Shown here piece after piece: positions 4,389-35,486 of a DNA stretch of 64,000 nucleotides. A program made the translations under genes and the position numbers. The notes beneath the pieces are model-generated. The model ran no database searches, was not told where the DNA came from, and saw only the letters and a program-made list of their open reading frames with translations. This DNA is from Chitinophagaceae bacterium (lineage in GTDB: Bacteria > Bacteroidota > Bacteroidia > Chitinophagales > Chitinophagaceae). Location: positions 362,596 through 426,595 of the forward strand of contig DASPKM010000004.1 of the NCBI GenBank assembly GCA_035628135.1, given 5' to 3'. How positions within the stretch are numbered: the stretch's first letter is position 1; each line of letters opens with the position of its first letter.

Positions 4389-4610
4389 GCAGAAAATTAT
4401 AGATTTTACTGCTGAATACGGGATAAAAAGGACGAAAGGCCGCTGAATTGATACAAATGACCTCCAAATATTGCAAAGCCCTGTTTTTTCATGCCATATG
4501 CGATATGTGACAACAAAACCCTCATCGGGCATTATTAAGAACTGACCTCCTGTTAGCGGTTATAATTTACACGTGTTCACGAAAGCATAACCATCAAAAA
4601 CTAATTAAGT

Positions 4611-5132: not shown

Positions 5133-5224
5133 TTTTCCAGGATAAGCTGAACGTGCTTACCACTTTGCCTCATGGTATTACCCCTGGCATTGTATTCGCT
5201 GCTTGTGATGTAAAAACCATCATC

Positions 5225-5413: not shown

Positions 5414-5434
5414 CAAGTATCAAAATTCATTGTT

Positions 5435-5623: not shown

Positions 5624-5662
5624 TGCCGGCGCTGCCCCGCCTTTCAAAGACCGTATAATAGT

Positions 5663-6112: not shown

Positions 6113-6322
6113 ATACTCATTTTGCTGTGTAAGAACAAAAAGCCAGCCTCATGTTTAATGGTGAACAGCCCCCACCCCGCTTTTACCTAAAGTTTAACCC
6201 AAGTCATAATAATTTTAAAATTGATGCCTGAATAAGCAAGCTGATTATTAAGAATACCTTAGCAAACACAACAAAATAATTCCGCACTGTCGGGGGTTCT
6301 ACAACTACTAAGACAAAAAGCA

Positions 6323-7165
6323 ATGAAAAGAACCCCTATTCTGATCGTGATTGCGCTGGCAATCTTTTCCTCCGCTTTTGCGAGCAAGAACCCCACTCCC
6401 GAGGTAAGCAAATCGCTGGTGTTCCCGGTATCGGGCAAGAAAAGTAATATCGGCAGCTTTTGGGGCGATGTGCGTGATGGTGGGAGGCGTAAGCACCAGG
6501 GCATCGATATTTTTGCGAGGAAAGGCACCCCTGTATTAGCGATTGCCGATGGCATTATCGTGTCCAAGGGCAATACGCCCCGTGGCGGTAAAACGCTCTG
6601 GCTGCAGCCGGTGGGATATCCCTGGACGGTTTACTATGCGCATTTGGATCAACAGAAGGTCAAGGAGGGACAATTTGTTAAAAAAGGCGAAGTGCTGGGC
6701 ACCGTGGGCAATACAGGCAATGCCCGCTATACGCCGGCGCACCTGCATTTCGGCATTTATACCTGGATTGGCGCGGTAAATCCGCTGCCGTATGTAAAAT
6801 ACTCACCCAGGATAGTATCGCCCCTGGCCAAACCGGCCGCCAAACAAGCGCCACTGGTAAAAGTCAGCAAGCCTAAACCAATAAAGCAAAAGCCGAATGT
6901 TGCTACCGTTGCGGCGTTTCCACGGAAATATGTTATGAAGACCATTTCCATTTCCGCCGATCCTGGCGCGCAATATTATGTAACCACGCGGTCCAATGTG
7001 GTGCGTGTTCATAATGGCAAAGTGCAGGTGGTTGGAAAATGGAACAAGGCCAACAGCAATAAATATCCTTACAGGATTACCCTGGCCAATAACAAGAAGG
7101 TATTTGTAAAACCATCGGGTAAACTAATAACGGCCGAAGGCGTAGAGATTGGCAAAGTGAGCTAG
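6323..7165 (+). CDS. M23 family metallopeptidase with C-terminal basic/SH3-like extension
   Basis: Signal peptide plus M23 motifs HQGIDIF...D and HLHFGIY (HxxxD / HxH). Confidence 0.85.
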   Translation: MKRTPILIVIALAIFSSAFASKNPTPEVSKSLVFPVSGKKSNIGSFWGDVRDGGRRKHQGIDIFARKGTPVLAIADGIIVSKGNTPRGGKTLWLQPVGYPWTVYYAHLDQQKVKEGQFVKKGEVLGTVGNTGNARYTPAHLHFGIYTWIGAVNPLPYVKYSPRIVSPLAKPAAKQAPLVKVSKPKPIKQKPNVATVAAFPRKYVMKTISISADPGAQYYVTTRSNVVRVHNGKVQVVGKWNKANSNKYPYRITLANNKKVFVKPSGKLITAEGVEIGKVS

Positions 7166-7171
7166 CAGCCA

Positions 7172-8563: not shown

Positions 8564-8653
8564 CAGAAAGAATTTAACAGACTGGCATCCTGATTCACAC
8601 AATAAAAATAGAACATATCGGCAGCTGCCTTCATCACCCGTTCGGGTGATGCT

Positions 8654-11101: not shown

Positions 11102-11122
11102 CAACTGCTTTATCGGAAAACG

Positions 11123-11150
11123 AAAGGCCGCTTGCGCGGCCTTTTTTATT
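11123..11150. terminator. bidirectional rho-independent terminator
   Basis: Hairpin AAAGGCCGC-TTGC-GCGGCCTTT followed by a T-run, lying between the convergent genes ending at 11101 and 11146. Confidence 0.6.
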
Positions 11151-12045
11151 TCGAAGGTATTGTTGTTACATTTTCACTGATGAACTTCACCAGGTCGTTG
11201 GCAAACCTTTCCGGCTGCTCCCAATGCAAGGCATGGCCCGTTTCTTCGTATATAATAAGCCGTGAGTTCCAGATGGTCTGCGACATCAACTGCTGGCCGG
11301 CCCTGGAACAGATGCCGTCCTTATCGCCCCAAAGGATCAGCACCGGTTTTTGAATGCCAGCAATTTCCTTGCGGAAGTCAACGCTGAGAAACCCTTCGGC
11401 AACCTGCTTCCATACGTGCGCAGGCATCTTCAGGCTTTCTCTGACCGCTATTTTATGAAAAGCAGGATCTACGGGTTTAAACACGGTGCTGCTTTGAAAC
11501 CCATCGGCAAATTCAGGGCTGATAGGATCACGCAATTTCTTGACCTCTTCATGAAACTCAGGCATGCCAGGATTATTGTTCATGGCAATATCGGAACTGA
11601 TCACTACCAAGGCCCTGGTAAGCTTTGGATAGGTGATCGCAAATTGCTGCGCGATGACGCCGCCCATGGAGTGACCTACGATCACAACCTGTCCGAGGTT
11701 CTTCTTTTTAATAAAATCAGCAATGTCGGCTGCAAAGTCCTTCGGGTGATAGTTGCCTCCCGGCTTATCTGAATCACCATGGCCTCGCTGCGACAGTGCA
11801 AACACGTGCATACGTTCGGGCAAGAACGGCAAAGTGGTTTCGAATGAATGCCAGGAGTCGGTGTACCCATGCAGCAGGATCACGGGAATGCCATTGGCAT
11901 TTCCTTTTTCCGCATATTGAAGACTAACACCGGTGCTCAATTGAATGGATTGCACCTTTCCCTTAAAAGGCGTGTAAGGGGCTTGTGCAAACAAACTGCC
12001 TGTAACTGCCAGGCATAGAATAACTGAAAATAATAATCGTGTCAT
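11146..12045 (-). CDS. secreted alpha/beta hydrolase
   Basis: Signal peptide MTRLLFSVILCLAVTGSLFA (internal start at 12045), HGYTDSW oxyanion region and a GHSMGG nucleophile elbow. Confidence 0.8.
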   Translation of the reverse strand: MTRLLFSVILCLAVTGSLFAQAPYTPFKGKVQSIQLSTGVSLQYAEKGNANGIPVILLHGYTDSWHSFETTLPFLPERMHVFALSQRGHGDSDKPGGNYHPKDFAADIADFIKKKNLGQVVIVGHSMGGVIAQQFAITYPKLTRALVVISSDIAMNNNPGMPEFHEEVKKLRDPISPEFADGFQSSTVFKPVDPAFHKIAVRESLKMPAHVWKQVAEGFLSVDFRKEIAGIQKPVLILWGDKDGICSRAGQQLMSQTIWNSRLIIYEETGHALHWEQPERFANDLVKFISENVTTIPSK

Positions 12046-14009: not shown

Positions 14010-15194
14010 CTATTTAAAAGGGTCTGAATATTTTGGGTCGGTTACCAGGCTCTGATCGGTAAGCGTTTTTAAGAATGCCACGATGGCCGCTTTGTCTGCC
14101 GCGGTTATGAATTGGTAACCTCCATTAGGTATCTGGACACCGCGATTGGGATGATTTTTTGCGCCGTTCTGGTAATGGTCCATTACCTGTTCCAGCGTGC
14201 TGAATCTTCCATCGTGCATATAGGGCGCGGTGAGCGCAATGTTTCTTAGCGTGGGCATCTTAAAGGTGCCCATGTCTTTTGCCAGCCCGGTCTTCTCTCC
14301 TATTCCATTGTCGGCATAGTTTAGGTCAAGCGCATTGTTGGCGCCAAACCCGGTATTGACGCCGGAATTTTCAACAATGATGAAAGTAGGTTCCAGGCGC
14401 GACGCCACATTGGTAAGATCACTGTGGCATTCCGTGCAATTGAGTTGGGTCATCAGTTGTTTGCCGCGCAATTCTTCCGTGCTGAAGTTTGCAAAATTAT
14501 TGCCCAGTCCCTGGTCGTATTTTGAATTGAAGGTAACGATCGAGCGCATGAATTGCGAAAGCGCTTTTGCGATGCGGTCGTCGGTGATATCTTCTGTTCC
14601 AAATGCATTCTTAAATAACGCTGGATAATAAGCCTTGCCTTTAAGCTTTGTTTCGAGTACGGACAACGATGGCATACCCATTTCGATATGGTCTGTAATG
14701 GGCATCAGCGATTGTTCTTCCAATGTGGCGGCGCGCAGGTCCCAGAACATTTTCTGCGCTTTAAAATACCGCACGTTCACGATCGCCATGGCATTGCGCC
14801 TGGTAACGCCACCATCGAAACCTTTTGAAACGTTCAAGCCATCGGTGAATGCCTTGTCCTGGTGATGGCAGGACGCACAGGCGATGGTATTATTAACTGA
14901 AAGCGATTTGTCGTAAAACAACACTCTTCCCAGGGTGGCGCCATGGTTGGTAATAGGATTATTGCCCGGTGTGTTGTCAACATCAGGATGCGCGTTGATG
15001 TAATTCCTGATGTGTGTGGGCATGGTGGCGCCGGCAGCGTAATCAAAAGGAGTTGGCGGCAGCTTTGGAGCGCCGGGTACGGGGCCTGGTACCGGAACAG
15101 GATCATCCCCGTTTATAGGTTCCTGGCAGCTAAATTGAATTAGCAGGATAAGACAAACGAAAAGCGTAATGGCTATGCTGTTTCTGCGGTTCAT
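14010..15194 (-). CDS. di-haem cytochrome c peroxidase (CCP/MauG family)
   Basis: Two CxxCH haem motifs (CASCH, CTECH) and the conserved PYMHDG region. Signal peptide present. Confidence 0.85.
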   Translation of the reverse strand: MNRRNSIAITLFVCLILLIQFSCQEPINGDDPVPVPGPVPGAPKLPPTPFDYAAGATMPTHIRNYINAHPDVDNTPGNNPITNHGATLGRVLFYDKSLSVNNTIACASCHHQDKAFTDGLNVSKGFDGGVTRRNAMAIVNVRYFKAQKMFWDLRAATLEEQSLMPITDHIEMGMPSLSVLETKLKGKAYYPALFKNAFGTEDITDDRIAKALSQFMRSIVTFNSKYDQGLGNNFANFSTEELRGKQLMTQLNCTECHSDLTNVASRLEPTFIIVENSGVNTGFGANNALDLNYADNGIGEKTGLAKDMGTFKMPTLRNIALTAPYMHDGRFSTLEQVMDHYQNGAKNHPNRGVQIPNGGYQFITAADKAAIVAFLKTLTDQSLVTDPKYSDPFK

Positions 15195-15325
15195 ACATGA
15201 GGAATTTAGGTCAATTGGTCAACGAATACACTTTATGTACGACATATACTGTAGATAAAAGAAATGCGTTGGGTAAAGCGGTTGCTTTTTACTTTTCTTT
15301 GTAAGACCATCCCAAAACCAATCAT

Positions 15326-15811
15326 ATGCGCTTTTCACAAAAAGCTACTGCCATTGCCGCTCTTATGGTAATGGCCTCTTGCGACATTACCGTAGAACAT
15401 TCAGACGCCCCTGCCTCCGGGGCCGCCGCTGAAATAAGCATGACCCGCGAACAGTTCTGGGCGGCCGCCAGGGCAGGAAATGTAGACAGCATGCTTGCCT
15501 TTCACCTCGACACTGCCACGTATAAATTATATGAGAACGGTGGAATGTACGATTATGCGGCCCAGGCAGATGGACACAAGGCCATGAAGGACCTTGGAGT
15601 GAACAGGATAGAATTCAATGTGCGTGTAATGGATACTGTTGTATTCAATAGGAGCCATGCAATGGAAACCTGGGATGGCACAACGGTTACGTGGCTTAAC
15701 TCAGGCCAGAAGGACACTTCGGGAAGGTTTTTTGTTACCATTTTGTATACGCGTACGCCTGAAGGCTGGAAGTTCAGTTATTTACATTCTTCAAGCAAGC
15801 CAAGTAACTAA
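15326..15811 (+). CDS. SnoaL-like/DUF4440-type lipoprotein
   Basis: Lipobox (MASC) and NTF2-like fold signature. Family assigned by eye. Confidence 0.5.
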   Translation: MRFSQKATAIAALMVMASCDITVEHSDAPASGAAAEISMTREQFWAAARAGNVDSMLAFHLDTATYKLYENGGMYDYAAQADGHKAMKDLGVNRIEFNVRVMDTVVFNRSHAMETWDGTTVTWLNSGQKDTSGRFFVTILYTRTPEGWKFSYLHSSSKPSN

Positions 15812-15854
15812 ATCTGTTGTTTTTGCATTAATTTTCCGGCCGCCATTACACCCA

Positions 15855-15942
15855 GGAGAGATGCCAGAGCGGCTGAATGGGACGGTCTCGAAAACCGTTG
15901 TCCGGCTTGTCCGGACCGAGGGTTCGAATCCCTCTCTCTCCG
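15855..15942 (+). tRNA. tRNA-Ser(CGA)
   Basis: Cloverleaf with 7-bp acceptor GGAGAGA/TCTCTCC, anticodon arm ACGGT-CTCGAAA-ACCGT (anticodon CGA), long variable arm and T-arm GAGGG-TTCGAAT-CCCTC. Close to E. coli serU by eye. No encoded CCA. Confidence 0.85.
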
Positions 15943-15980
15943 CTTTTTGATGGTTTTGTTCACTTTTTCACGCTTTCTGT
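15943..15980 (+). repeat. R0: repeat tail directly following the tRNA-Ser 3' end (TTTTTGATGGTTTTGTTCACTTTTTCACGCTTTCTGT)
   Basis: Together with the tRNA 3' end this is the prototype of the downstream direct repeats. Confidence 0.6.
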
Positions 15981-16063
15981 ATTTTGGCAGACAGCCACTC
16001 ACTAATCTGTAATTCATACTTCTTCAGGAAATTCCTGATTTTCAACAAATCTGTTTCAAATAA

Positions 16064-16140
16064 ATTCGAATCCGTCCCATCACTTCGCCTTCGTTCGCCG
16101 AAGCTTTAACGTAGGCGAACTTGGCTCACAACAAGAGCTT
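16064..16140 (+). repeat. R1: tRNA-3'-end-like core (TTCGAATCCGTCCCATCACTTCGCC) with a B-type hairpin tail
   Basis: Core similar to the other copies. The tail carries the inverted repeat GTTCGCC...GGCGAAC. Confidence 0.55.
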
Positions 16141-16222
16141 TATTCCTCGGCCAGCAAATTTCGGCAGACGAAGTCCACTTAATAGATGGGAGAGCCCCGG
16201 ACCTCAATAGCTCATAAGGGGA

Positions 16223-16747
16223 TTATGATAGAAGCCATAATACTGCACTTAAAAATATACTGGCAAAAATTAGACCCAAATAGAAAACTGAAACTTCTTT
16301 GAATTTCATAGTCATCTTTTGAGAAACAAATTTTTTATATTCCAAATCCTTTCTGTATTGAAACCCTGTGGGATCTAGTACTTTAAAATTTGTAAACTTA
16401 TTACTTGCACAGTCAGTCGCAAATTCTTCGCTATTGAGATACTCAGCAATTTTTATTTGTCGATAAATTGACCTTCGCTGAAGCGTTCTAAAAAAGGAAT
16501 CCATATACCAAAAAAGCAGTGGAATAATTGAAGTCATTAGGATTATCGATGCACGTAACTCTTGCAAATCTTTACCCAAGGCTATAGAAATAACTCCCGC
16601 CCAAATCAAAATACTCCAATTTTTGCTTACCCTAGCAAAGTTGTCCATTCTGTCGATTATAGCATTAATGGTATTTAGTTCCCAAGTGATCAAGTCGACA
16701 TTATGCTCGAATGGATTGATATTATTATTCATTTGATTCATTCGCAA
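16223..16747 (-). CDS. cassette 1: hypothetical membrane protein (3 predicted TM helices)
   Basis: AT-rich ORF. Hydrophobic segments WSILIWAGVISIALG, IILMTSIIPLLFWYM and VFYLGLIFASIFLSAVLWLL. Confidence 0.5.
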   Translation of the reverse strand: MRMNQMNNNINPFEHNVDLITWELNTINAIIDRMDNFARVSKNWSILIWAGVISIALGKDLQELRASIILMTSIIPLLFWYMDSFFRTLQRRSIYRQIKIAEYLNSEEFATDCASNKFTNFKVLDPTGFQYRKDLEYKKFVSQKMTMKFKEVSVFYLGLIFASIFLSAVLWLLS

Positions 16748-16915
16748 TGTAACTAATCGACAATTAATCGGATTTACAAATCGTGAATAGGCAAAACGAA
16801 GGTATCAATTTATCAATGTGGTTTTTATTTATTTCTGAGCTTGGTTTAAATTGACAGTTATAGAAGATGCTACACTTGTTAGAATGCCACTGATTGTCAA
16901 TAAGTCTTTAACCAA

Positions 16916-16983
16916 AAAGTTCGAACTCCGTCCCCTCCACCCCGCTTTTTTGATGGTTTTGTTCGCTTTTTTACGCTTTCTGT
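16916..16983 (+). repeat. R2: AAAGTTCGAACTCCGTCCCCTCCACCCCGC plus A-type tail TTTTTTGATGGTTTTGTTCGCTTTTTTACGCTTTCTGT
   Basis: Near-identical to R0, R3 and R4. Confidence 0.65.
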
Positions 16984-17021
16984 TTGCGACGATAATCAGC
17001 TTCAATTCTGGCTAATCAGTA

Positions 17022-17600
17022 TCATTTCTGATAGTTCAATAATGTGTCGTTTCTATAATGTTCTTTTCTGATAGTATCGCCCGTTTCTGAGAAGTACAGC
17101 CAAATACTGTCCTTTACCCATTTGTCTGTTTCAGGGAAAGGAGAACCTTCACTTACGGTGTCATTGCTTTTATAAAACTCAATCTTTCTGAGTTTTGTGG
17201 TCCCGGTGAAATTATAGTAAGCTTCCTGGTAGCGATGATTGTTTACATTGAATTCATAGGTAGAAGACCTTGCATTACCCTGGCTAATCCGGGCAGCTAC
17301 TGTAAAAATAATTAGTGGAAGCAAGGGAGTTGCGGTCACCATCCCAATTTTGTCGGCAGTTGTTCTAACTTTAATGATTTTAGTCCGCCATAGAATAAAC
17401 TGTACGATTGGAAAGAGAACAAAAAGAAATATATACGCAAAGCCTATTCCTAATGATATACTTGGGTCTTGTTTTGCTTGTCCATATAAGTATAGCACAG
17501 TTCCATAGAAGACGATATTGAAAAGTAAAAGTGGAATATTCATGAGGAGTAATTGGTATCCCGAAATATAACGTAAGACGCGCTCTAAAAATACGCACAT
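17022..17600 (-). CDS. cassette 2: hypothetical membrane protein (3 TM) with a soluble C-terminal domain
   Basis: AT-rich ORF with three hydrophobic helices, then a hydrophilic ~80-aa tail. Confidence 0.5.
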   Translation of the reverse strand: MCVFLERVLRYISGYQLLLMNIPLLLFNIVFYGTVLYLYGQAKQDPSISLGIGFAYIFLFVLFPIVQFILWRTKIIKVRTTADKIGMVTATPLLPLIIFTVAARISQGNARSSTYEFNVNNHRYQEAYYNFTGTTKLRKIEFYKSNDTVSEGSPFPETDKWVKDSIWLYFSETGDTIRKEHYRNDTLLNYQK

Positions 17601-17640
17601 ATTGGTATAAAGGCCTTAACAATCAGCAAATCTTTCACCA

Positions 17641-17709
17641 AAAGTTCGAACTCTGTCTCCTCCACCCCGCTTGTTTGTTGATTTTGTTCACTTTTTGACG
17701 CTTTCTGTC
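17641..17709 (+). repeat. R3: AAAGTTCGAACTCTGTCTCCTCCACCCCGC plus A-type tail
   Basis: Direct repeat copy. Confidence 0.65.
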
Positions 17710-18010
17710 CTCTTGATCTACATTGATCAACTAATGTATAATTCTCGATGATAGCGATCGCATACTATGGGATGCACAGAACCCATGCATCACCAAGGAG
17801 GCTTAGATGATTTATGATTATGCGGGCAGGTTTTGTAGAAACTACTAACACAAATTACATTTTACAAATTCTTAAAACCGTAACTTCTTATAGAATGAAC
17901 AGGCTTGGGAAAAAGAATTAGGGTAGGGCGATAAACGGATTTGGATCGGTATAAAAGCTTTCATACACTCCAAAGCTACTGCACACGATTTGGCTGGTTT
18001 CGAAATGGTA

Positions 18011-18472
18011 TTAAAAAGAAAATCCGCCATTTTGGCGGATCGCTAAGAATGCTGAGTATTTCTTCCCCTTTTCATAAGGATGCCATTGGTCTCCAACCTG
18101 GCCCCAGAGGAAAAAATAATTTTCTATTTCTTCAAGATGCTTATTGATATTCATCTGATACCACCGGTGTTTTACTGCCGTATTACCTTTCACGAATATG
18201 GAAACATTCCAGTTAATGACTGTGAAAGTCCTGATAATGTTTCCGAGCGTATGTAAAACCTTTTCGGCGTCCCCATTATAGCTCAGCTTCGAATCATCAA
18301 TTTTTTGGGTTTTTTCGTCCCAGTCGCCAAATCCAAAATTATAAGTATCGTCAAATTGGTAGGTAAACTGTGCGGCCTTCGGAATCGTGCCTTTTGGGCC
18401 GGTGCTGACAAATTCAAAGAGAGTCACACTGGCTGAAACATTTTTTTTTGTATCATAACATTCGCCAACCAT
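18011..18472 (-). CDS. cassette 3: hypothetical soluble protein (contains an A9 tract at codons 8-10)
   Basis: AT-rich ORF with no recognisable domain. Confidence 0.45.
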   Translation of the reverse strand: MVGECYDTKKNVSASVTLFEFVSTGPKGTIPKAAQFTYQFDDTYNFGFGDWDEKTQKIDDSKLSYNGDAEKVLHTLGNIIRTFTVINWNVSIFVKGNTAVKHRWYQMNINKHLEEIENYFFLWGQVGDQWHPYEKGKKYSAFLAIRQNGGFSF

Positions 18473-18778
18473 AATAGATATTTATAATACTCCCTCAAAT
18501 TATGTTCCATTAATATCCTGGCAACTCGTTTACCTCGTCCCAGCCCTGCCATTTGATAGGCCTTCAGAGCATTCCCCACCTATTATAGAGTGGACAGATA
18601 CACTGCAAACCACAAGGGACTGAGATCACATTCAATAATTCGTTAGATCGGTTTATTTTTGGATTCAACACTCCCAAGGCTGCAGCTCTTAGCGGCTGCC
18701 AATACAGAAAGGTTGTAGGCTGTATAATTAATGCAACAAAGTGAAGAAGACACTGATTTTCAGTAGATCCCTTAAGCG

Positions 18779-18845
18779 AAAGTTCGAACTCTGTCCCCTA
18801 CACCCCGCTTTTTTGATGGTTTTCTTGGTCTTAATCACTTTCTGC
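18779..18845 (+). repeat. R4: AAAGTTCGAACTCTGTCCCCTACACCCCGC plus A-type tail
   Basis: Direct repeat copy. Confidence 0.65.
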
Positions 18846-18867
18846 CGCATTTGCCTTAGGCGACTAG

Positions 18868-19170
18868 TCATCTCGAGATATTGGTGCATATACCAAAAAT
18901 TGAATTCCGAGTCACCCATCCATTGATGCGGCCAACATTATTGCCAATTTGATACCTTTCTCCTTGAATTGCTTTTATAAGATGTAAATAATGGGTGCCA
19001 TTTACTTTGCACAACACTATATCATCTTTACGTAGTTGTCGATCGCGCAAGGGTTCAACCGTCACCAACTCGCCAGATTCTATTTTTCCTTTCATTGAAT
19101 TCCCTCTTGGACGGAATTGCACCGTTTCGCCTGCCTTCAACTTTTCAATATAATGTGCAGCCCAGCTCAT
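18868..19170 (-). CDS. cassette 4a: S24 (LexA/UmuD-like) peptidase-fold protein, about 100 aa
   Basis: GNSMKGKIESGELVTV and DIVLCKVNGTHYLHLIKA resemble the S24 Ser/Lys dyad region. Start placed at the internal ATG at 19170. Confidence 0.4.
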   Translation of the reverse strand: MSWAAHYIEKLKAGETVQFRPRGNSMKGKIESGELVTVEPLRDRQLRKDDIVLCKVNGTHYLHLIKAIQGERYQIGNNVGRINGWVTRNSIFGICTNISR

Positions 19171-19285
19171 TTTATTTATTCCCCAGGGTTTTTGTGAGCA
19201 TAACCCCAACAAATGTCTATGTTAAATTACAAACGGAACCTAAACATAACGATCGCGTTTTTACCACTTAAAGCGAAAACCCTTC

Positions 19286-19783
19286 TTAGCCATTTCTTTG
19301 TTTCATGTAGTTTAATAAGTCAAGGATATGCTGTTGTGTATGACTTTTGAAAATCAATTCAAAGTACCGAAGCCCATCAGCCACACTATTGTTTTCAATT
19401 CGCCACTTAATTTCTAGCAAGTCTCCAATAATGTCAGTTAAGTCATCAACTGCGTCGCCAATGCCACACTCTTTCAAATTGTAAATATCCTCGAAGTCCA
19501 GTGGAGTCTTGTAGAATCCAAAGTCTTTGAAGTTCGTTTCGACATTAGATCGGACGTTCGTCAAGTTCGATTTATCAAAGTCTGGATAGTCGGTATCATC
19601 AAACTGGTAGCTGATGTCAAAATAAAGGCTGTAAATTTTAACCAGACTGTGCTCCAACATTTTATCTCGGTTGGGCACACATAAACTTGGTTGTAGTCCA
19701 AATTTTACAATTTCCTGTATTGTCTCTAGTAGCTTCGTCATTTTCGTGTGGACTGATAACGCACTAACTCTAAAATAGCGCAA
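19286..19783 (-). CDS. cassette 4b: hypothetical acidic protein
   Basis: AT-rich ORF with no recognised domain. Alternative start at 19741. Confidence 0.45.
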   Translation of the reverse strand: MRYFRVSALSVHTKMTKLLETIQEIVKFGLQPSLCVPNRDKMLEHSLVKIYSLYFDISYQFDDTDYPDFDKSNLTNVRSNVETNFKDFGFYKTPLDFEDIYNLKECGIGDAVDDLTDIIGDLLEIKWRIENNSVADGLRYFELIFKSHTQQHILDLLNYMKQRNG

Positions 19784-19912
19784 ATAATAATAAATATTGC
19801 GATTCTGAATATGCGCAATTAAATTAAGATATAATAAACGCAGTAGATTGGCTTGGAAGGGGTTTTATAGGTGCCGTATAAATCCACTAATGATCTGCAA
19901 ATCGTTCAAAAC

Positions 19913-19972
19913 GAAGTTCGATATCTGTCCCTTGTAGCCCACTTTGTTTCAAAGTTTTACACACTTTCTGTC
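19913..19972 (+). repeat. R5: degenerate copy (GAAGTTCGATATCTGTCCCTTGTAGCCCAC plus TTTGTTTCAAAGTTTTACACACTTTCTGTC)
   Basis: Direct repeat copy, more diverged than the others. Confidence 0.5.
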
Positions 19973-20076
19973 TTTGGCTAACAGGGTTTGCAAGAATTTT
20001 ATAGACGAAGTGCTTTCGTTATTTGTTTAACCAACGCTGCAGTTTCTGCAATGCAGGGTCGGAACGTAACAAGCCT

Positions 20077-20703
20077 TTAGCCTGGGAACCTGGTATCAGC
20101 TATGATCCTCTTTAGCTGTTCAATATGCCTTATGCGATGGGCGACAAGGATCAACCCTAATTGATGACAATCTCTGATGGTACGGACCCCCTTGCCATCC
20201 ATTCTAAAAACAAAATACCGCCTTAGATCCTTAGAAGCATTTACGGTGAAAAATTCCTTTACCAGATCATTGGTTTCAGAAAAAATGCGTACACAGGCAT
20301 CCTTACTGCAGTACCGGTTCCTCGGTAAATTAGTTCCCCTTGCTTTGCCCTTTTCCGGTTGCGTCGCATATGCAAGCGCTTTCTCATCGCCTCCTTTTGT
20401 GGAGTCCGCATAACTTGCAGGAAAAACCGGCTGGGCCAGTGAAAACCACAATTCCCGTACATAACCTTCATCAATAAGCCCCAGGTGTTCAACAATATCA
20501 TTTGCTGACCATGTATTCGTATCAATCCGATAAAAGAATTGCGACTCCTTCAAGGTATTGACAACTCTCAACAACTCGTTATGTGTTGAATCAAGCAGCC
20601 TTAACATCTTTTTGTTGTCGGCATCTGTATAATGCCGCTTTGCCGGTTGGGCCCCCAACATAAAAGAACAGCTAAGAAAGAGAAAAAGTATAAGATATTT
20701 CAT
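20077..20703 (-). CDS. cassette 5: secreted DinB/YfiT-like (DinB_2) family protein
   Basis: Signal peptide MKYLILFLFLSCSFMLGAQP (internal start at 20703). His-containing helical bundle signature HLGLIDEGY...HRIRHIEQL. Confidence 0.6.
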   Translation of the reverse strand: MKYLILFLFLSCSFMLGAQPAKRHYTDADNKKMLRLLDSTHNELLRVVNTLKESQFFYRIDTNTWSANDIVEHLGLIDEGYVRELWFSLAQPVFPASYADSTKGGDEKALAYATQPEKGKARGTNLPRNRYCSKDACVRIFSETNDLVKEFFTVNASKDLRRYFVFRMDGKGVRTIRDCHQLGLILVAHRIRHIEQLKRIIADTRFPG

Positions 20704-20857
20704 TGTATTCACGGTTAATGTAACTAACGGCGCCGAACCTTTAATCTTCATCCAATGCACTAACCAAGGTAATAAAAATATCAATTCCCTTCTGCACTCA
20801 CAGATAACCAGTACCTATAAACAAACTGCTTTATTCTCAGTAAATCCTTCAAAAGGA

Positions 20858-27884: not shown

Positions 27885-28625
27885 TTATTTTCCGTCGTCT
27901 GTCAAAGTTCCGTTCTGGATAAACCTGATCTGCACTTTTGTATCATCAGTTGCGCCGGGAACGCCAGACAGCAATATTGTGTACACCCTTCCCTGGGCAA
28001 CGTCTATCGTCCTGCTGGCATCGATGGCTGCGCCATTCTTTGCGGCAACGGTCAACTGGCCGGGAGCAACCGCTTTAAATTCACTAACACCTGCATAAGT
28101 TGCAGTTTCATTTACTACGGTATTGCCACCTGCGGAAATGGTAACGAGCGGTGTATTTACCGAATCGGTAATGGCATTTACATAACGTATGTATGCCTGG
28201 CCCGATGCAGCGGACAAGCTATCGATGTTATCCTGCACCACTACGTTGCGGTAGCTGTTGTTGGCTCCTACTACGAATACCGAATAGTACTTGTCGTCTT
28301 TAAATTCATAATCAACGCTGGCCAGCGGCTTGCTTGCAGGATAATCAAAACTTTGAACGGGCCTGTTGCCTATGTATATATTCTGATATCCCCCGGTATA
28401 ACTGGTGTAGCTCAGCGGCGTACGCGTGAGCAGGTTGCCTGAAAGCGTAACCACCACCGACCGCTGGTCGGGCGCCAGGTTAACGGCCATCAACCCCGCA
28501 GCGGGAACGTCAACATTGTTATCGTTGTTCTTGGTACATGCTGCAAACAATACTGCTGCCGCCACTATCGCTATACCGGCAAACAAATTCCGGCGGAAGC
28601 TCAAAGAGACCTTCTTCATATTCAT
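27885..28625 (-). CDS. DUF4397-like lipoprotein
   Basis: Lipobox (FAAC) and the repeated beta-rich pattern typical of DUF4397. Assigned by eye. Confidence 0.55.
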   Translation of the reverse strand: MNMKKVSLSFRRNLFAGIAIVAAAVLFAACTKNNDNNVDVPAAGLMAVNLAPDQRSVVVTLSGNLLTRTPLSYTSYTGGYQNIYIGNRPVQSFDYPASKPLASVDYEFKDDKYYSVFVVGANNSYRNVVVQDNIDSLSAASGQAYIRYVNAITDSVNTPLVTISAGGNTVVNETATYAGVSEFKAVAPGQLTVAAKNGAAIDASRTIDVAQGRVYTILLSGVPGATDDTKVQIRFIQNGTLTDDGK

Positions 28626-28878: not shown

Positions 28879-29862
28879 ATGATACAGCCGCTTGAAGCAA
28901 AACAGGACCTTGCAGTAAGCCTTTCCAATGGCGTGCGCTCCACCGCAGGCAAGGTGTGGGATGTACTGACGGCAAGCAGGGATGGGAACCTGCAGCGCGT
29001 ACAGCAATTGGTGAATGAATGCGCGGAGCTGGCCTATGCACAATACAATTATACGCCTCCCATTCATTTTGCAGTAAGAGAGGGACATGCAGAACTGGTG
29101 CAATACCTGCTTGGTCTCGGCGCACTGGACCCATCTTATATCACGTATCCTTTCAAGGAAACGCTTCTTACAGTTGCGCAGGACAGGGGCTATCGCGCTA
29201 TAGCAGGCATGTTGCAGCAATATCTCAGCGACCCCTCGCTCTGTAAATTCAAAGGTGATAATGGCGAGATACACTACAATCAAACGCCGGTACAACAAGC
29301 CTTTCAAAAAGCAGTAGACAAAGGCGACATCTGCACAACAGCGGCATTGCTACTCGATCATGCCGACCTGCTGCAAACCGATAATTATTTCTGGGGTGAA
29401 GGCATACTCATGATGCCGGCCAAAGACCCGAATCCTGAAATGGTGAAATTATTGCTTGACCATGGCGCCAAAGTTCCAGGCGTATCAAAATGGGGACGGT
29501 TTTATTATTTCAAGCACTACCCTATGGCTGTATTCCTGATGCAGCACGGCATGAATCCAAATCACATGAACTGGCATCATGTAACGTTATTGCACGATAT
29601 GGCACAGGAAGGCGACTTGCAAAAAGCCCGGCTACTGTTGCAGCATGGCGCTGATGTGGACCCGTTAGAAGAAGAATACTGTTCTACGCCACTCGGAATG
29701 GCGGCGAGGTGGGGACATGTTGAAATGGTTGAACTTTTATTGCAGCAAGGCGCGGACGTGCACACAGCGGGCGTTGACTGGGCTACACCGTTACAATGGG
29801 CAAAGCGAAAAGGACATGAACGCATCGAAGCGATGCTGCGTGAAGCCGGCGCCGAACATTGA
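28879..29862 (+). CDS. ankyrin-repeat protein
   Basis: Several ANK repeats (TPPIHFAVREGHAELVQYLLGLGA; TPLGMAARWGHVEMVELLLQQGADV). Confidence 0.85.
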   Translation: MIQPLEAKQDLAVSLSNGVRSTAGKVWDVLTASRDGNLQRVQQLVNECAELAYAQYNYTPPIHFAVREGHAELVQYLLGLGALDPSYITYPFKETLLTVAQDRGYRAIAGMLQQYLSDPSLCKFKGDNGEIHYNQTPVQQAFQKAVDKGDICTTAALLLDHADLLQTDNYFWGEGILMMPAKDPNPEMVKLLLDHGAKVPGVSKWGRFYYFKHYPMAVFLMQHGMNPNHMNWHHVTLLHDMAQEGDLQKARLLLQHGADVDPLEEEYCSTPLGMAARWGHVEMVELLLQQGADVHTAGVDWATPLQWAKRKGHERIEAMLREAGAEH

Positions 29863-30333: not shown

Positions 30334-30409
30334 GGCCTGTTCGTCTAATGGTACAGGATACCACACTTTCGATGTGGGGATACGGGTTCGATTCCCGTAC
30401 AGGCTACCA
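30334..30409 (+). tRNA. tRNA-Glu(TTC)
   Basis: Acceptor GGCCTGT/ACAGGCT, anticodon arm CCACA-CTTTCGA-TGTGG, T-arm ACGGG-TTCGATT-CCCGT, encoded CCA. Confidence 0.8.
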
Positions 30410-30481
30410 GGTTCGTTGGTGTAATGGCTAACATAGCAGATTGTCGATCTGTTGACACGGGTTCGAATCCCGTACGAACCG
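30410..30481 (+). tRNA. tRNA-Asp(GTC)
   Basis: Acceptor GGTTCGT/ACGAACC, anticodon arm GCAGA-TTGTCGA-TCTGT, T-arm ACGGG-TTCGAAT-CCCGT. Confidence 0.8.
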
Positions 30482-30486
30482 CGCAC

Positions 30487-30558
30487 TGGTTTATAGTTCA
30501 ATGGACAGAACACCGCGCTACGAACGCGGAGATGAAAGTTCGATTCTTTCTAAACCAA
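30487..30558 (+). tRNA. tRNA-Arg(ACG)
   Basis: Acceptor TGGTTTA/TAAACCA (U1-A72), anticodon arm CCGCG-CTACGAA-CGCGG, T-arm GAAAG-TTCGATT-CTTTC. Confidence 0.7.
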
Positions 30559-30592
30559 CACCGCCAGCATTTGAAGGGATTGATATTCAGCA

Positions 30593-30664
30593 GATGATTT
30601 AGCTCAATGGTAGAGCAGCACCCTGATACGGTGCAGGTTGATAGTTCGAATCTATCAGTCATCA
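30593..30664 (+). tRNA. tRNA-Ile(GAT)
   Basis: Acceptor GATGATT/AGTCATC, anticodon arm GCACC-CTGATAC-GGTGC, T-arm GATAG-TTCGAAT-CTATC. Confidence 0.7.
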
Positions 30665-30665
30665 C

Positions 30666-30741
30666 TGGCTCGTAGCTCAATTGGCAGAGCTCCAGGTTTT
30701 TACCCTGGAGGTTGTGAGTTCGATCCTCACCGGGCCAACCA
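30666..30741 (+). tRNA. tRNA-Lys(TTT)
   Basis: Acceptor TGGCTCG/CGGGCCA, anticodon arm CCAGG-TTTTTAC-CCTGG, T-arm GTGAG-TTCGATC-CTCAC, encoded CCA. Confidence 0.75.
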
Positions 30742-30742
30742 T

Positions 30743-30815
30743 GGATGAATAGCTCAACTGGCAGAGCAACGGCTTGTTAAGCCGGAGGTTGAAAGTTCGA
30801 TTCTTTCTTCATCCG
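30743..30815 (+). tRNA. tRNA-Asn(GTT)
   Basis: Acceptor GGATGAA/TTCATCC, anticodon loop TTGTTAA, T-arm GAAAG-TTCGATT-CTTTC. Confidence 0.8.
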
Positions 30816-30949
30816 CCGTAGCATGACATTGACAATGTCATCACAAGAGCTTCCTCTTTTAAGGAAGGAACATGCCGTTGCATTCAAACCAGGCCTGTGC
30901 TTCAAAAAAGCATGGCAGTGCAGGAGTAGTAACTCCCTGTATGCTGTTG

Positions 30950-31140
30950 CTGCAGCGGATGTGTCAGCAACACTGCGTGTCGGGGGTTCGATTCCCCTTC
31001 ACATCACCATTTAACGGGTGTGATAGCTCAGTGGTTAGAGCAGCAGACAAATCGCGGGTTCGAATCCCGCACGGACTGTGAATCCGTTAGCTCAGGCGGT
31101 AGAGCACTACGCTCATAACGTAGAGGAAAAAGGGAGTCCA
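30950..31140 (+). pseudogene. tRNA-derived fragments / tRNA-like structured RNA (three incomplete cloverleaf modules)
   Basis: (i) 30958..31009: an acceptor plus T-arm minihelix ending in ACCA. (ii) 31016..31079: G(-1)-type acceptor and D-arm followed directly by a T-arm, with no anticodon arm, then a His-like anticodon hairpin ACGGA-CTGTGAA-TCCGT. (iii) 31081..31126: D-arm plus CAU anticodon arm (CTACG-CTCATAA-CGTAG) with no T-arm. No complete cloverleaf can be drawn. Confidence 0.35.
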
Positions 31141-31445
31141 CCACTCCTGTAACAAAGGTGACCATTATAAAAAGCCGGGTTGTTTGCCCGCGGTACTACC
31201 GCAGTCCGGTAAACACCTGCATGCAGGCTTCTCGGCAGTATGGCTTGCATTACTTCACAGGAGCAGCAATTGCCGATGAAGCCGGTGATCCCACATACAG
31301 GGGTAACCGGCAGAAGTCAAGGACGCTCCGATGAACTGATGCGAAAAAATACTGGCACTGCCTGCTTCCGTGGATACGGGATGGTGAACAATGCGGCTTT
31401 TTAATTTTTAAAACTTATAACAACCAATAACAACAGGAGGTAAAC

Positions 31446-33215: not shown

Positions 33216-35486
33216 TTGTATATTGGAAAATGTATGGGACTTAAAGTGCACAGGGTGATATCGAGGCGCTTGCCTGAGCCGGGCTTAATGCCCGAGGACA
33301 CGCCGGAACTGCATGCGCTTGCACAGTATGTAAGGGCTGGCCGGTGCATTTTGTTCGTAGGCGCGGGACTGCCTTCAGGAGCGGGCCTTCCAACCTGGGT
33401 GGAATTGATGGAAAGGCTGGTGAAAAAGATCACCTGCTACGGTATTAATGAAGGCGTGGTACCCAATTATATCTCCCTCCCTGTTAGTGAAGAAGATGCC
33501 TGGAAAGACCCTGTGGTGGTTGCTGTACAAAAGGAACTAGGTAAAAAAACATTCGATCAATTGCTCAAGCAGATCCGTCGCACCACTGCCCTTACCTCGG
33601 AACCAGAGATCATCTTACTCGCATTGGAAATTGTGGGCCGCACTTCCATAGAACGCGCAGAGTTGATGCGGCTGCTGCAACAAAAGCGCTTTCCGGAGCT
33701 GGCCGAGTTTTGCCGCAACAGGTTGGGTAATGAACGGTTCAACCAGGAAATACGCAAGGCCCTGGTACCAAAATCCGGGTTGCCCGCGGCATTCCGCCAT
33801 ATTGTGCGCACGCCATTCGCGTGCATTGTAACCACTAATTTCGATACGTTGATCGAGCGAGCCTACGAACAATTCGGGCAAACGGGTATTCCACGCGCAC
33901 CCACGGGCGTTGAGCTTACACAGCTTGGCACGCTGCTGATAGATGATTCGTTTTTTGTATTGAAAGCGCATGGCGACGCGCTGCGTCCTGAAACGATGAT
34001 ATTTTCAGCGAACGATTACCGCCGCCTCATTCATGCCACGCCCGCATTCCAGGCATTCTTCAACAGCATGCTAATGACGCATGCATTGCTGTTTGTAGGT
34101 TATTCATTGAACGATGCCAACTTTCGCCTGTTATTGGACCAGCAGTTTACGATGTTCAACGGGCAGGTGCCGCCGCGCTATGCATTGCTAAGCGGTGTTG
34201 GCGCCGCGGAAGAAGATATTCTGTGGCAAACCGCCCGGCTACAGGTGCTCTCCTATCCCGATGGAAAGCACGAGCACGTAGAAAGATTTTTAGGAAGGCT
34301 TGCAAGGGTCACGAAACAACCAGGCGCCATCATTCCTTCGAAACCGGCGACGCCTTCGCCCAAAACAGGCATCATCAATACAGACGAAGCATCTACACTG
34401 TTCAACACCAGCATCCGCGATGGAAGGTTGTTGGTTGAACTCGTACGGCCTGCCAATTCTAAAACGCAGCCCACCACATGGGCCATGCAGGTAAGCCAAA
34501 AGGATTTTGAGGACTTTAAGTCATCGATCAAAGACGTGGTAAAAGCACACACGCAATATCACTCGGCCATGCCCGAAATAAATGCCATCAAAGAACATTT
34601 TTTGAAATTGTTTCCTGCGGAGCTGTTTCGAAAGCTGGCGGCATTGAAACCGGGCTCGCCCATTCGTTTTGTTTGCAGGCATGGAACGCACCGCATACCC
34701 TGGGAATGGTTGCCGGCGGCCAAAACACCGCTATGCCTGAGACATTCGGTTTCACGATGCCCCATCACATTAAGCGATACGGCGCGGGGCTACCGCATAC
34801 TCAACAAAAGGGTTCGCGCACTTATCATTGGCGACGCGGGCAGCGGCCAGCCGCCCCAACTCTGGCCCCTGGACGAGGCAGAACGCGAAGCGACAGAAAT
34901 AGTAAAGCGGCTGCGGAATAAATTATCTCCTAAAGGGGTTACGCATTTGTCGAGGAAAACCGCCACCAGGAACCGCATCCTGCGCGAATTGCGGGAAGGA
35001 GATTATGATATCATCCATTTTGCAGGACATGCATGGTTCACCAACCGTGAATCTTATCTATGGGCCTGGGACAATGTAATGCTGGGTTCTGAGCTAACGC
35101 CCATGCTTAGCCGCAGGCCTCCGTCGTTGCTGGTAATGAGCACGCATTTCACCAGCTTCGTGCCGCTGGGGATTAATGAAGACCTGATGGCGAAGCTGGC
35201 CGGCAAAACCACAGCGCTGCACGAAATAGAAGCTCAGCATTCGCTCGACTTTGCCGAAAACGCCATGCGTTGCGGCGTAGCTACTTTCGTGGGCTCATTC
35301 GGCGAGCCTCCGGAAAAGGACACGGCCGACACCATGATCGCTTTTTATGAAGGGTTGCTGGCAGGCGATTCCGTGGCCGGCTCGCTGCTGAAAGCAAGGA
35401 AGCGCCGTGTCCAGAAAGGATTCACGAGCAGCCTCCTTGTAACAGCCACAGGTTATGGCGATCTGCGGCTGGTGAATAAAAAATGA
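33216..35486 (+). CDS. SIR2-like (SIR2_2) NADase-type domain fused to a CHAT-like caspase-fold domain; candidate antiphage defence protein
   Basis: N-terminal SIR2_2 motifs: ILFVGAGLPSGAGLPTW, IVTTNFDTLIE, VLKAHGD, LLFVGYSLND. C-terminal CHAT-like motifs: ALIIGDAGSG, DIIHFAGHAWF, LLVMSTHF (His in place of the catalytic Cys), and the tail VATFVGSFG...MIAFYEGLLAGDSVAGSLLKARKR. Confidence 0.75.
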   Translation: MYIGKCMGLKVHRVISRRLPEPGLMPEDTPELHALAQYVRAGRCILFVGAGLPSGAGLPTWVELMERLVKKITCYGINEGVVPNYISLPVSEEDAWKDPVVVAVQKELGKKTFDQLLKQIRRTTALTSEPEIILLALEIVGRTSIERAELMRLLQQKRFPELAEFCRNRLGNERFNQEIRKALVPKSGLPAAFRHIVRTPFACIVTTNFDTLIERAYEQFGQTGIPRAPTGVELTQLGTLLIDDSFFVLKAHGDALRPETMIFSANDYRRLIHATPAFQAFFNSMLMTHALLFVGYSLNDANFRLLLDQQFTMFNGQVPPRYALLSGVGAAEEDILWQTARLQVLSYPDGKHEHVERFLGRLARVTKQPGAIIPSKPATPSPKTGIINTDEASTLFNTSIRDGRLLVELVRPANSKTQPTTWAMQVSQKDFEDFKSSIKDVVKAHTQYHSAMPEINAIKEHFLKLFPAELFRKLAALKPGSPIRFVCRHGTHRIPWEWLPAAKTPLCLRHSVSRCPITLSDTARGYRILNKRVRALIIGDAGSGQPPQLWPLDEAEREATEIVKRLRNKLSPKGVTHLSRKTATRNRILRELREGDYDIIHFAGHAWFTNRESYLWAWDNVMLGSELTPMLSRRPPSLLVMSTHFTSFVPLGINEDLMAKLAGKTTALHEIEAQHSLDFAENAMRCGVATFVGSFGEPPEKDTADTMIAFYEGLLAGDSVAGSLLKARKRRVQKGFTSSLLVTATGYGDLRLVNKK

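Follow-up and report, generated by a model that had tools for sequence, protein, structure and literature searches.

The stretch of DNA analysed here, referred to as the window (64,000 nt of contig DASPKM010000004.1 from a Chitinophagaceae bacterium), contains on its forward strand an open reading frame at positions 33216..35486 (756 aa when counted from TTG) which encodes a SIR2-type domain fused to a domain of the CHAT type. The ATG at 33234 is the likely start codon and is favoured over the TTG because the resulting length of 750 aa is that of P0001, a public protein annotated as “SIR2 family protein [Chitinophagaceae bacterium]” with 100% identity to the window protein, and because the N-terminal “MGL.V” is common to homologs from other phyla. 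No contig on record as encoding the window protein itself was returned. A scan for sigma-70 promoters and terminators around the gene gave nothing above shuffled expectation with a tool that does not cover the promoters of Bacteroidota. The features of the gene are as follows.

33234..35486, + strand: SIR2-CHAT gene, 750 aa from the ATG at 33234, frame open from the TTG at 33216 (open reading frame list and translation)
33309..34268, + strand: SIR2_2 domain of the NADase type, aa ~26-345, with a helical insertion at aa ~66-185
33360..33374, + strand: glycine loop GAGLP of the NAD-binding Rossmann fold, aa 43-47, aligning with “fvGAGvS” of KomC
33831..33845, + strand: TTNFD, aa 200-204, aligning with TTNYD of KomC; N202 is encoded at 33837-33839
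33963..33977, + strand: KAHGD, aa 244-248, with the catalytic His H246 at 33969-33971
34098..34115, + strand: GYSLND, aa 289-294; G289, Y290, S291, L292 and D294 are invariant
34269..34394, + strand: variable, partly disordered linker, aa 346-387, pLDDT <50 at aa 363-375
34395..34658, + strand: pre-CHAT subdomain, aa 388-475, three strands and three helices according to the secondary structure of the model
34659..35468, + strand: CHAT (separase/caspase-fold) core, aa 476-745, without a cysteine nucleophile
35016..35039, + strand: HFAGHAWF, aa 595-602; H595 is invariant and H599 (35028-35030) occupies the canonical catalytic-His position
35127..35150, + strand: LLVMSTHF, aa 632-639; H638 (35145-35147) occupies the catalytic-Cys position

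All motifs named in the original prediction, which had been made from the letters of the window, are present together with the C-terminal tail, and their coordinates were checked; the glycine loop, there described as GAGLS-like, reads GAGLP in the window and GAGLS in 34 of 37 aligned homologs. Upstream of the gene, at a distance of 2.4 kb, lies an array of six tRNAs (30334-30817), followed by a degenerate tRNA-like element (31017-31078), which agrees with the proposed tRNA cluster and remnant about 2 kb away. The SPFH and DUF1905 (OmdA) neighbours are also as described, and T9SS amylase, DUF1801, GH109, and LysR genes complete the neighbourhood. The view that this is a typical accessory-island context is not supported: neither an integrase nor a transposase nor any known defence gene occurs in the neighbourhood, and its GC content is not deviant. 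A search for att-like, tRNA-derived direct repeats reaching from the array to beyond the gene found only T-arm paralogs and short chance repeats; this search thus lends no support to the gene being part of a tRNA-integrated element.

The N-terminal half is a SIR2_2 domain of the defence type with its catalytic residues intact. It matches Pfam SIR2_2 (PF13289) with 90.9 bits against a cutoff of 24.5 (E 1e-25) and the ThsA models of PADLOC with E 8e-25, the latter match being restricted to the SIR2 region (aa 154-323); N202, D204 and H246 are invariant in all 115 full-length homologs. H246 aligns with H146 of KomC, which is replaced in PDB entry 9xvc (“KomC(H146N)”). When the PDB was searched by sequence, KomC (9e-15), ThsA (6.8e-12), and also DSR2 were retrieved, and Foldseek returned ThsA (8btp, 1.9e-12), DSR2 and KomC with a probability of 1.00, the target-normalised TM-scores to isolated SIR2 chains being 0.69-0.78. 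Judged from these relationships of sequence and fold, the domain probably hydrolyses NAD+ as an effector of the ThsA/DSR2/KomC type. The closest SIR2 domains elsewhere are joined to NACHT, AAA_16 STAND or WD40 sensors as well, from which it appears that this type of SIR2 acts as a swappable N-terminal effector.

The C-terminal half matches Pfam CHAT (PF12770) with 64.6 bits against a cutoff of 24 (E 1.3e-17). Its comparison with the PDB by sequence profile gave only a marginal match to SAVED-CHAT (E 0.13), and the caspase/CHAT fold, as had been proposed, was established from the predicted structure. In alignments, HFAGHAWF is matched by “HFIGH” in the SAVED-CHAT structure (8tl0) and by “HYAGHG” in a CHAT relative that is active. 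That a histidine stands in place of the catalytic cysteine is borne out by the alignment of “MSTH” with “...ANAC...” of a closely related active CHAT protein, and the secondary structure of the model (a strand at 632-635, then S-T-H) agrees with this placement of H638. The change from Cys to His is real and defines the clade: the nucleophile position is never Cys in the 115 full-length homologs, but His in 86 and Leu, Asp, Glu, Ile or Arg in 29. Within a set of 254 proteins, none of those bearing SIR2 has Cys at this position, while the nearest CHAT proteins without SIR2 retain the canonical His/Cys dyad (a comparison from which the 2033-aa protein of JOSHI_001 was left out). The original suggestion that the CHAT part might activate a partner protein is not upheld, as the nucleophile is absent and no partner is conserved.

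The position of H599 is His in 87 of the 115 homologs (76%), and it covaries with that of H638, both being His in 84 and neither in 27 (~24%), with few mixed cases. The covarying pair hints at some remaining chemistry, or at binding of a metal or small ligand, and not merely at a dead site.

Between the two domains lies the linker, with a mean pairwise identity of 26% and one of 42 columns conserved. The pre-CHAT subdomain which follows is the fastest-evolving part of the protein (23%, none of 88 columns conserved); here PADLOC reports a weak match to BovA of the Borvo system (E 2.6e-5; aa 380-512 of the protein, positions 300-427 of the 720 in the profile). Over the 115 homologs, mean pairwise identity falls from 64% in the SIR2 core to 40% in the CHAT core and 23% in the pre-CHAT subdomain, a gradient such as one would expect if a constrained effector is coupled to a sensor that diversifies.

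SIR2-CHAT is an uncharacterised, horizontally scattered single-gene family. Relatives are distributed patchily across at least eight phyla, copies from Bacteroidota and Acidobacteriota, for example, being 65% identical, and come mostly from bacteria of soil or wastewater, such as Myxococcota, Acidobacteriota and Planctomycetota. All phyla in which the family occurs are environmental and little studied, which probably explains why island screens centred on model bacteria missed it. Paralogous duplications occur; one identical protein (P0016) was found in two different contexts, one of them adjoining an IS66 element; and at one locus (L017) the SIR2 and CHAT halves lie in separate reading frames. 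In 33 loci (24 genome loci and nine further contexts) no neighbouring gene is conserved, in line with the proposed single-gene unit, and no synteny of any kind, housekeeping or other, was found conserved around the homologs. When metagenome contigs were searched with the convergent amylase neighbour of the gene, only one (L089, 86% identity) was seen to share the order GH109-DUF1801-amylase, and it stops exactly at the 3′ end of the amylase gene; relatives at 73% identity or below have no neighbour in common with the window.

Some copies do lie among genes of mobile elements or defence, as is the case in about three or four of the nine homolog contexts inspected in detail. The clear island is that of Burkholderiales JOSHI_001, with a NACHT protein, an integrase, ParE, SSB and RadC as neighbours; besides it, three contexts show toxin-antitoxin/AbiEii genes (a PIN/RHH pair together with AbiEii), IS66 or a second SIR2 gene nearby. 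The majority of contexts are without defence genes, and the surroundings are ordinary metabolic or housekeeping ones in the window and at three other loci. The full-length fusion was found neither on the viral contigs of IMG/VR nor on the plasmids of PLSDB, which gave only partial matches to SIR2 or to CHAT.

The architecture is, as anticipated, outside the named defence systems: no PADLOC model spans the whole protein, and besides the weak BovA match its models meet the SIR2 part only. Literature searches, which did not cover subscription-only papers, found none describing a SIR2-CHAT fusion or containing both “CHAT domain” and “SIR2”. Among the closest known systems are DSR2 and DSR1, likewise single polypeptides with an N-terminal SIR2_2 NADase, the same catalytic Asn and His, and a large C-terminal non-enzymatic module (the Foldseek match to DSR2 is ~1e-11 over ~350 columns). 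By analogy, the logic of DSR, in which binding by the sensor leads to NAD+ depletion, would be expected for SIR2-CHAT. However, the C-terminal region of DSR, which senses phage proteins, consists of helical repeats over at least 700 residues, whereas that of SIR2-CHAT is a caspase fold, and membership in DSR was rejected (NCBIfam gives 16.4 bits for Dsr2 and 14.8 for Dsr1, the cutoff being 1400; the Dsr models of PADLOC match the SIR2 core only).

ThsA (Thoeris type I, SIR2-SLOG) and KomC (Kongming) have the closest SIR2 domains both by sequence and by structure; they are NADases activated through ligand-induced assembly. SIR2-CHAT differs from them in having neither SLOG nor a TIR (ThsB) partner nor KomA/KomB, the CHAT domain being the regulatory module instead. 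It is not a Thoeris protein, since the ThsA match covers the SIR2 region only, the window has no TIR gene close by and the homolog loci share no conserved neighbour. Nor does it belong to Avs5 (AVAST type 5, SIR2-STAND), for which NCBIfam gives 9.9 bits against a cutoff of 1000 and whose NTPase domain the protein does not have, or to Borvo (BovA, a single-gene CHAT protease), the match being partial and weak and the nucleophile absent.

With regard to the CHAT part, Csx29/TPR-CHAT (Craspase), SAVED-CHAT and BovA are active His/Cys proteases, and DdvA acts as an anti-sigma factor; SIR2-CHAT is set apart from the immune CHAT proteases by the loss of Cys throughout the clade and by the fused SIR2 effector. 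Its nearest CHAT relatives (profile E ~1e-30 to 1e-27) are proteins composed of lipase/alpha-beta-hydrolase, Peptidase_M17_N and CHAT, and CHAT-STAND/TIR-SLOG conflict proteins. They share with SIR2-CHAT the motif “D..H[YF]AGHA.F” and the C-terminal position of CHAT, but keep the cysteine of “NAC” and carry lipase, TIR, SLOG or STAND modules, not SIR2. Relatives of the lipase-CHAT type are occasionally encoded beside SIR2-CHAT; with a lipase-CHAT neighbour in only two of the 33 loci, an obligatory partnership was dismissed. For caspase domains of bacterial conflict systems which are catalytically inactive, a role as binders or decoys has been predicted (PMC7159879). None of the pseudo-caspases or pseudo-CHAT scaffolds (c-FLIP, Raptor, CFAP46, the inactive caspase domains of vWA-MoxR conflict systems) is fused to SIR2. 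We know of no description among them of a Cys-to-His replacement with a covarying pair of histidines.

The explanation we favour, with moderate confidence, is that SIR2-CHAT is a stand-alone, horizontally mobile conflict protein, most likely acting in anti-phage abortive infection, in which a SIR2 NADase effector would be controlled by a protease-dead CHAT sensor or scaffold. As part of this explanation, and held with the same confidence, the CHAT domain would descend from CHAT proteases that are active in bacterial conflict systems; having lost its cysteine it would no longer cleave, but take on a role in regulation, sensing or assembly. In the resting state, SIR2 may be kept inactive within the compact two-domain protein, as suggested by the single-chain structure model, which is confident (pTM 0.86). 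A ligand derived from the infection, most likely a phage protein or peptide acting as a non-cleavable pseudo-substrate, would then bind either in the degenerate cleft of CHAT or at the pre-CHAT subdomain with its fast evolution and alter the conformation or the oligomeric state of the protein, upon which SIR2 would deplete NAD+ and the infection would be aborted.

A related but unlikely possibility is that the dead CHAT domain is an integrated decoy which mimics active immune CHAT proteases: a phage inhibitor of CHAT or caspase proteases, acting as a securin-like pseudo-substrate, would be bound but neither cleaved nor released and would thereby switch on the SIR2 NADase. The clade-specific exchange of Cys for His would then be an adaptation turning a cleaving enzyme into a non-releasing trap. 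However, active CHAT genes co-occur only rarely (in two of the 33 loci), and mimicry of the active site is not universally kept, as nearly a quarter of the family is without both cleft histidines. We know of no phage CHAT inhibitor of this kind, and the guard/decoy strategy described for plant NLRs has, to our knowledge, so far not been described for bacterial caspase-like immunity.

It is likewise improbable that the pocket formed by His599 and His638 is the binding site of a metal ion or of a signal derived from a nucleotide, with CHAT being a ligand-gated switch for SIR2 comparable to SLOG in ThsA. The tight covariation of the two histidines argues for a joint function and not for drift, and SIR2 enzymes of the ThsA type are indeed ligand-gated (8btp, 8bto); moreover, the caspase-like effector of type IV Thoeris was reported to bind a cyclic ADPR signal, N7-cADPR (PMC13434031). 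Yet the gene has no conserved neighbour which could produce a signal (TIR, cyclase), and the quarter of the family without the pair has a perfect SIR2 site all the same.

There is, further, a small chance that the protein has no immune function at all. Sirtuin-fold enzymes may be deacylases or ADP-ribosyltransferases, and an NAD-dependent enzyme of this sort with a scaffold domain might have a regulatory role or take part in programmed cell death under stress or in the course of development; the many copies among ordinary metabolic genes, that of the window included, and the complex lifestyles of the mostly soil- and wastewater-dwelling hosts would fit such a role. Against it stands the affiliation with the SIR2_2 (DSR/ThsA-like) branch, whose nearest solved relatives KomC, ThsA and DSR2 are all anti-phage NADases, as well as the lack of conserved synteny, the patchy occurrence suggestive of horizontal transfer, the paralogous duplications, and the fact that the nearest relatives of both domains are found in conflict-system architectures.

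A proteolytic switch, in which CHAT is still a hydrolase (His- or water-based) or another protease cuts the disordered linker, is very improbable: the catalytic-His position is kept in most homologs, the replacing His is potentially reactive and not inert, the variable disordered linker is ~40 residues long and the halves of L017 lie in separate frames, but we know of no caspase- or separase-fold enzyme of clan CD with a His nucleophile, the 29 homologs with Leu, Asp, Glu, Ile or Arg at this position speak against one, the linker is without a conserved cleavage motif and no protease partner is conserved.

In bacterial immunity, SIR2 NADases recur as the executioner module, and it is the sensor which varies between systems and is informative biologically; in SIR2-CHAT, the place of the sensor would be taken by a systematically disarmed caspase/separase-fold domain, whose sister CHAT proteins have remained active. 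If the favoured role of SIR2-CHAT in phage defence is true, the family would add a single-gene system unnamed in current catalogues and a clean bacterial case of a pseudo-protease as immune receptor. With one gene and two point-mutable sites, it would also be a tractable model for the sensing of non-cleaved ligands by caspase folds, and sensing by such a fold without cleavage bears also on eukaryotic pseudo-caspases (c-FLIP) and on the regulation of separase.

The ORF of the SIR2-CHAT gene (33216-35486, plus strand) is uninterrupted in the ORF list and in translation; the ATG at 33234 is its likely start, giving 750 residues, and a public "SIR2 family protein [Chitinophagaceae bacterium]" of that length (P0001) is identical to it. 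The N-terminal MG(L)xV is common to homologs in unrelated phyla. All motifs quoted in the original prediction were found in the protein and their coordinates verified:

Residues 43-47, GAGLP
Residues 200-204, TTNFD
Residues 244-248, KAHGD
Residues 289-294, GYSLND
Residues 595-602, HFAGHAWF
Residues 632-639, LLVMSTHF

Pfam SIR2_2 (E 1e-25, residues 197-338) and CHAT (E 1.3e-17, residues 472-725) both match far over the curated cutoffs. PADLOC matches to the SIR2 region are led by ThsA (8e-25), followed by LmuA, PDC-S25, Dsr1/2 and SIR2-pAgo partners; Borvo BovA gives a single weak, partial match outside it (residues 380-512), and the NCBIfam equivalogs Dsr1, Dsr2 and Avs5 reach 10-16 bits against cutoffs of 1000-1400. 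No named-system model in PADLOC or NCBIfam covers the full architecture, and membership in DSR, Thoeris, Avs5 or Borvo was rejected because the protein lacks their defining features. The top matches among PDB sequences are anti-phage NADases, namely KomC (9e-15), ThsA (6.8e-12) and DSR2; the SIR2 domains of ThsA and KomC are closest, and His246 of KAHG falls on KomC His146, which is the mutated position of PDB 9xvc. The AlphaFold2 model (37-sequence alignment) is confident (pLDDT 88.3, pTM 0.86), with pLDDT below 50 only in the linker at residues 363-375. By Foldseek its N-terminal half resembles ThsA, DSR2 and KomC, and its C-terminal half Craspase TPR-CHAT/Csx29 and DdvA; the structural relatives, with their listed figures, are:

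Separase, 24.9
Csx29, 23.6
TPR-CHAT, 22.2
Gingipain, 20
SAVED-CHAT, 19.3
DdvA, 18
Metacaspases, 15-16.5
Caspases, about 13

The same list holds the known pseudo-caspase scaffolds Raptor, c-FLIP and CFAP46. Since the CHAT fold is present in the predicted structure of the C-terminal domain and no SIR2 catalytic residue is missing, the original prediction, which had been made dependent on both, stands on these two points.

A word-indexed search returned at least 229 homologs; of the 120 listed, almost every one is a SIR2_2-CHAT fusion of 650-810 amino acids. SIR2 N202, D204 and H246 and CHAT D592, H595 and G598 are invariant in all 115 full-length homologs. The canonical catalytic-His position, 599, is His in 87 of these, and position 638, that of the canonical Cys nucleophile, holds His (86), Leu (12), Asp (11), Glu (3), Ile (2) or Arg (1), and never Cys (n=115). 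The two positions covary, with His at both in 84/115 and lost from both in 27/115. Their correspondence is fixed by alignment with the active CHAT of a related 1132-residue alpha/beta-hydrolase-CHAT protein (locus L003), where HYAGHG matches HFAGHA and ANAC matches MSTH; the Cys-to-His substitution proposed originally is borne out, His638 of the window protein being aligned with the Cys of this sister. The protein thereby fails the His-Cys dyad test for active CHAT peptidases.

The C-terminal profile was also run exhaustively (HMMER) against 1.84 billion cluster representatives, of which 107 matched at E <= 1e-30. The Cys nucleophile is absent from every SIR2-bearing match, and the few His/His matches without SIR2 are short contig fragments. 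From E about 1e-30 downward there follow SIR2-less proteins of 600-1600 amino acids that keep the canonical [YF]AGHA.F ... NAC dyad, in architectures typical of bacterial conflict systems:

Lipase/alpha-beta-hydrolase + Peptidase_M17_N + CHAT
Lipase_3-TIR-SLOG-CHAT
CHAT-AAA_16-TPR
AAA_16-CHAT

Because the SIR2-bearing matches all lack the Cys and the SIR2-less sisters keep the dyad, nucleophile loss is, as judged from sequence, a shared derived character tied to the SIR2 fusion.

Constraint along the protein in 115 homologs (mean pairwise identity; columns >=95% identical)
SIR2 core, 64%; 49/200
SIR2 helical insertion, 34%; 4/120
Linker, 26%; 1/42
Pre-CHAT subdomain (residues 388-475), 23%; 0/88
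CHAT core (residues 476-745), 40%; 25/270

Such a profile would be expected if an enzymatic effector under strong constraint were coupled to a recognition or regulatory module that evolves faster. The most similar SIR2 domains are also fused to NA-iREase1+NACHT, AAA_16 STAND modules and WD40+AAA_21, and these varied partners mark this SIR2 type as a swappable N-terminal effector on different sensors or switches.

The accessory-island context proposed originally holds for only some homologs and is not supported for this window. Here, DUF1905/OmdA and SPFH genes lie upstream and a T9SS-tailed alpha-amylase-like gene is convergent, with DUF1801, GH109, LysR and radical-SAM genes farther on; no integrase, transposase or recognised defence gene is found nearby in the window, and at 0.49-0.52 the GC of the locus differs little from its surroundings. 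The six-tRNA array (30334-30817) lies 2.4 kb upstream, followed by a degenerate tRNA-like element; a search of the window for an att-like repeat bracketing the gene found none. Other features of the window are:

15855-20800, GC 0.37-0.39 against about 0.48 in the flanks, starting right after tRNA-Ser(cga) (15855-15943)
18011-18472, minus strand, DUF6934 protein
18868-19212, minus strand, short S24-peptidase-like (LexA/CI-type) ORF
27885-28625, minus strand, DUF4397 protein, adjoining the ankyrin-repeat gene
28879-29862, plus strand, 327-residue ankyrin-repeat protein (Ank_2, E 7e-32), just upstream of the tRNA array
30984-31154, degenerate tRNA-like elements directly downstream of the array
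30984-31001 and 31056-31073, T-arm-like repeats
31017-31078, tRNA called by Rfam (33.5 bits, gathering score 29), not by ARAGORN
31052-31105, sub-threshold YrlA (Y-RNA-like) match
31086-31154, weaker tRNA-like Rfam match, 23.9 bits

The low-GC stretch, in which no integrase was seen, otherwise holds small ORFs without family match and may be what is left of an integrated element.

Flanking ORFs were compared all-against-all in 24 species-representative genomes with the full-length fusion (ORF calling was crude at high-GC loci; gene-called contexts agree with the result). No neighbour is conserved across lineages among them, and the few shared ones occur only in close relatives (Hyalangium/Archangiaceae; Accumulibacter). 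Housekeeping synteny, named originally as an argument against a defence role, therefore does not apply, there being no conserved synteny at all among homolog loci. In Burkholderiales JOSHI_001 (locus L080) the gene lies in a clear mobile/defence island (NNH1-NACHT, Amidase_2, integrase, SRAP, RadC, SSB, DUF932, ParE), directly downstream of a gene for a 2033-residue DUF7379-CHAT protein (3548-9649). Homolog P0003 (L083/L084) occupies an islet between housekeeping LptE/holA/rpsT (S20) and metabolic genes, with a second SIR2_2 gene (14730-17330, 866 amino acids, faint TPR matches) 2.5 kb downstream; P0016 occurs as an identical protein in two different contexts, one adjoining an IS66 element; a PIN/RHH toxin-antitoxin pair and a faint AbiEii match lie near P0072; and P0005, P0034 and P0074 have ordinary neighbourhoods. 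At the P0074 locus (L171) a divergent isochorismatase-family gene (7179-7814, minus strand) adjoins the fusion, a single case without pattern across loci; PncA, the nicotinamidase of NAD salvage, is a member of this family.

At L003 the gene for the 1132-residue protein (6646-10044, minus strand) lies 2.8 kb from the SIR2-CHAT gene. The large proteins of L003 and L080, both lipase-like alpha/beta-hydrolases with an active CHAT, stand beside SIR2-CHAT in two unrelated genomes; proteins of this build, with a Peptidase_M17_N-like domain in the middle, are the closest relatives of the pseudo-CHAT that are still active, and the two may correspond to the alpha/beta-hydrolase-caspase components of Kaur et al. 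2020 (PMC7159879). A Gemmatimonadaceae MAG (L014) carries paralogs about 5 kb apart (2293-4803 and 9845-11941), and in an Acidimicrobiia MAG (L017, 9911-11673) the SIR2 and CHAT halves are in different reading frames, which could reflect a frameshift, a pseudogene or an assembly error.

Hosts belong to Bacteroidota, Acidobacteriota, Gemmatimonadota, Verrucomicrobiota, Planctomycetota, Myxococcota, Actinomycetota and Pseudomonadota; the 65% identity between the Chitinophagaceae protein and one of Blastocatellia indicates horizontal transfer. No full-length fusion was found in IMG/VR viral contigs or PLSDB plasmids.

The intact, highly constrained SIR2 NADase-type active site, the CHAT fold without nucleophile, the lack of an obligatory partner and the patchy, HGT-like distribution make a stand-alone abortive-infection protein the best-supported reading and, by analogy, a reasonably probable one. 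ThsA, DSR2, KomBC, SPARSA and Avs5 are all SIR2 NADases that become active when a ligand drives a conformational change or assembly; here, the CHAT module would sense an infection cue and control SIR2. Separase-type clefts accommodate extended peptides, so the simplest assumption would be a phage protein or peptide docking on CHAT as a non-cleavable pseudo-substrate, after which the protein would oligomerise. Its probable way of working is like that of DSR2, in which one gene supplies both the SIR2 and a C-terminal sensor. For inactive caspase domains of bacterial conflict systems, a function as binders or decoys had been predicted earlier (Kaur et al. 2020, PMC7159879). The fusion could also be an integrated decoy guarding against phage inhibitors of CHAT proteases, which seems rather unlikely. 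Similarly improbable is that the covarying His pair 599/638 forms the basis of a sensor for a small molecule or metal; type IV Thoeris has a comparable caspase-like protein that binds N7-cADPR (PMC13434031). A non-immune cellular role is doubtful, and residual or linker-directed proteolysis is very improbable.

The architecture is visible in automatic annotation (e.g. JGI "SIR2-like domain/CHAT domain"). In the open-access library, to which the search was confined, no paper describing the fusion, or naming "CHAT domain" together with "SIR2", was found; wider searches gave only reviews naming the two separately. Under the reading as a stand-alone abortive-infection protein, what would be new is the pseudo-enzymatic sensor attached to a SIR2 effector. 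The combination by itself is unsurprising given modular defence systems; the specific, testable feature is the clade-wide, fusion-linked disarming of a caspase-fold protease, together with its covarying His pair.
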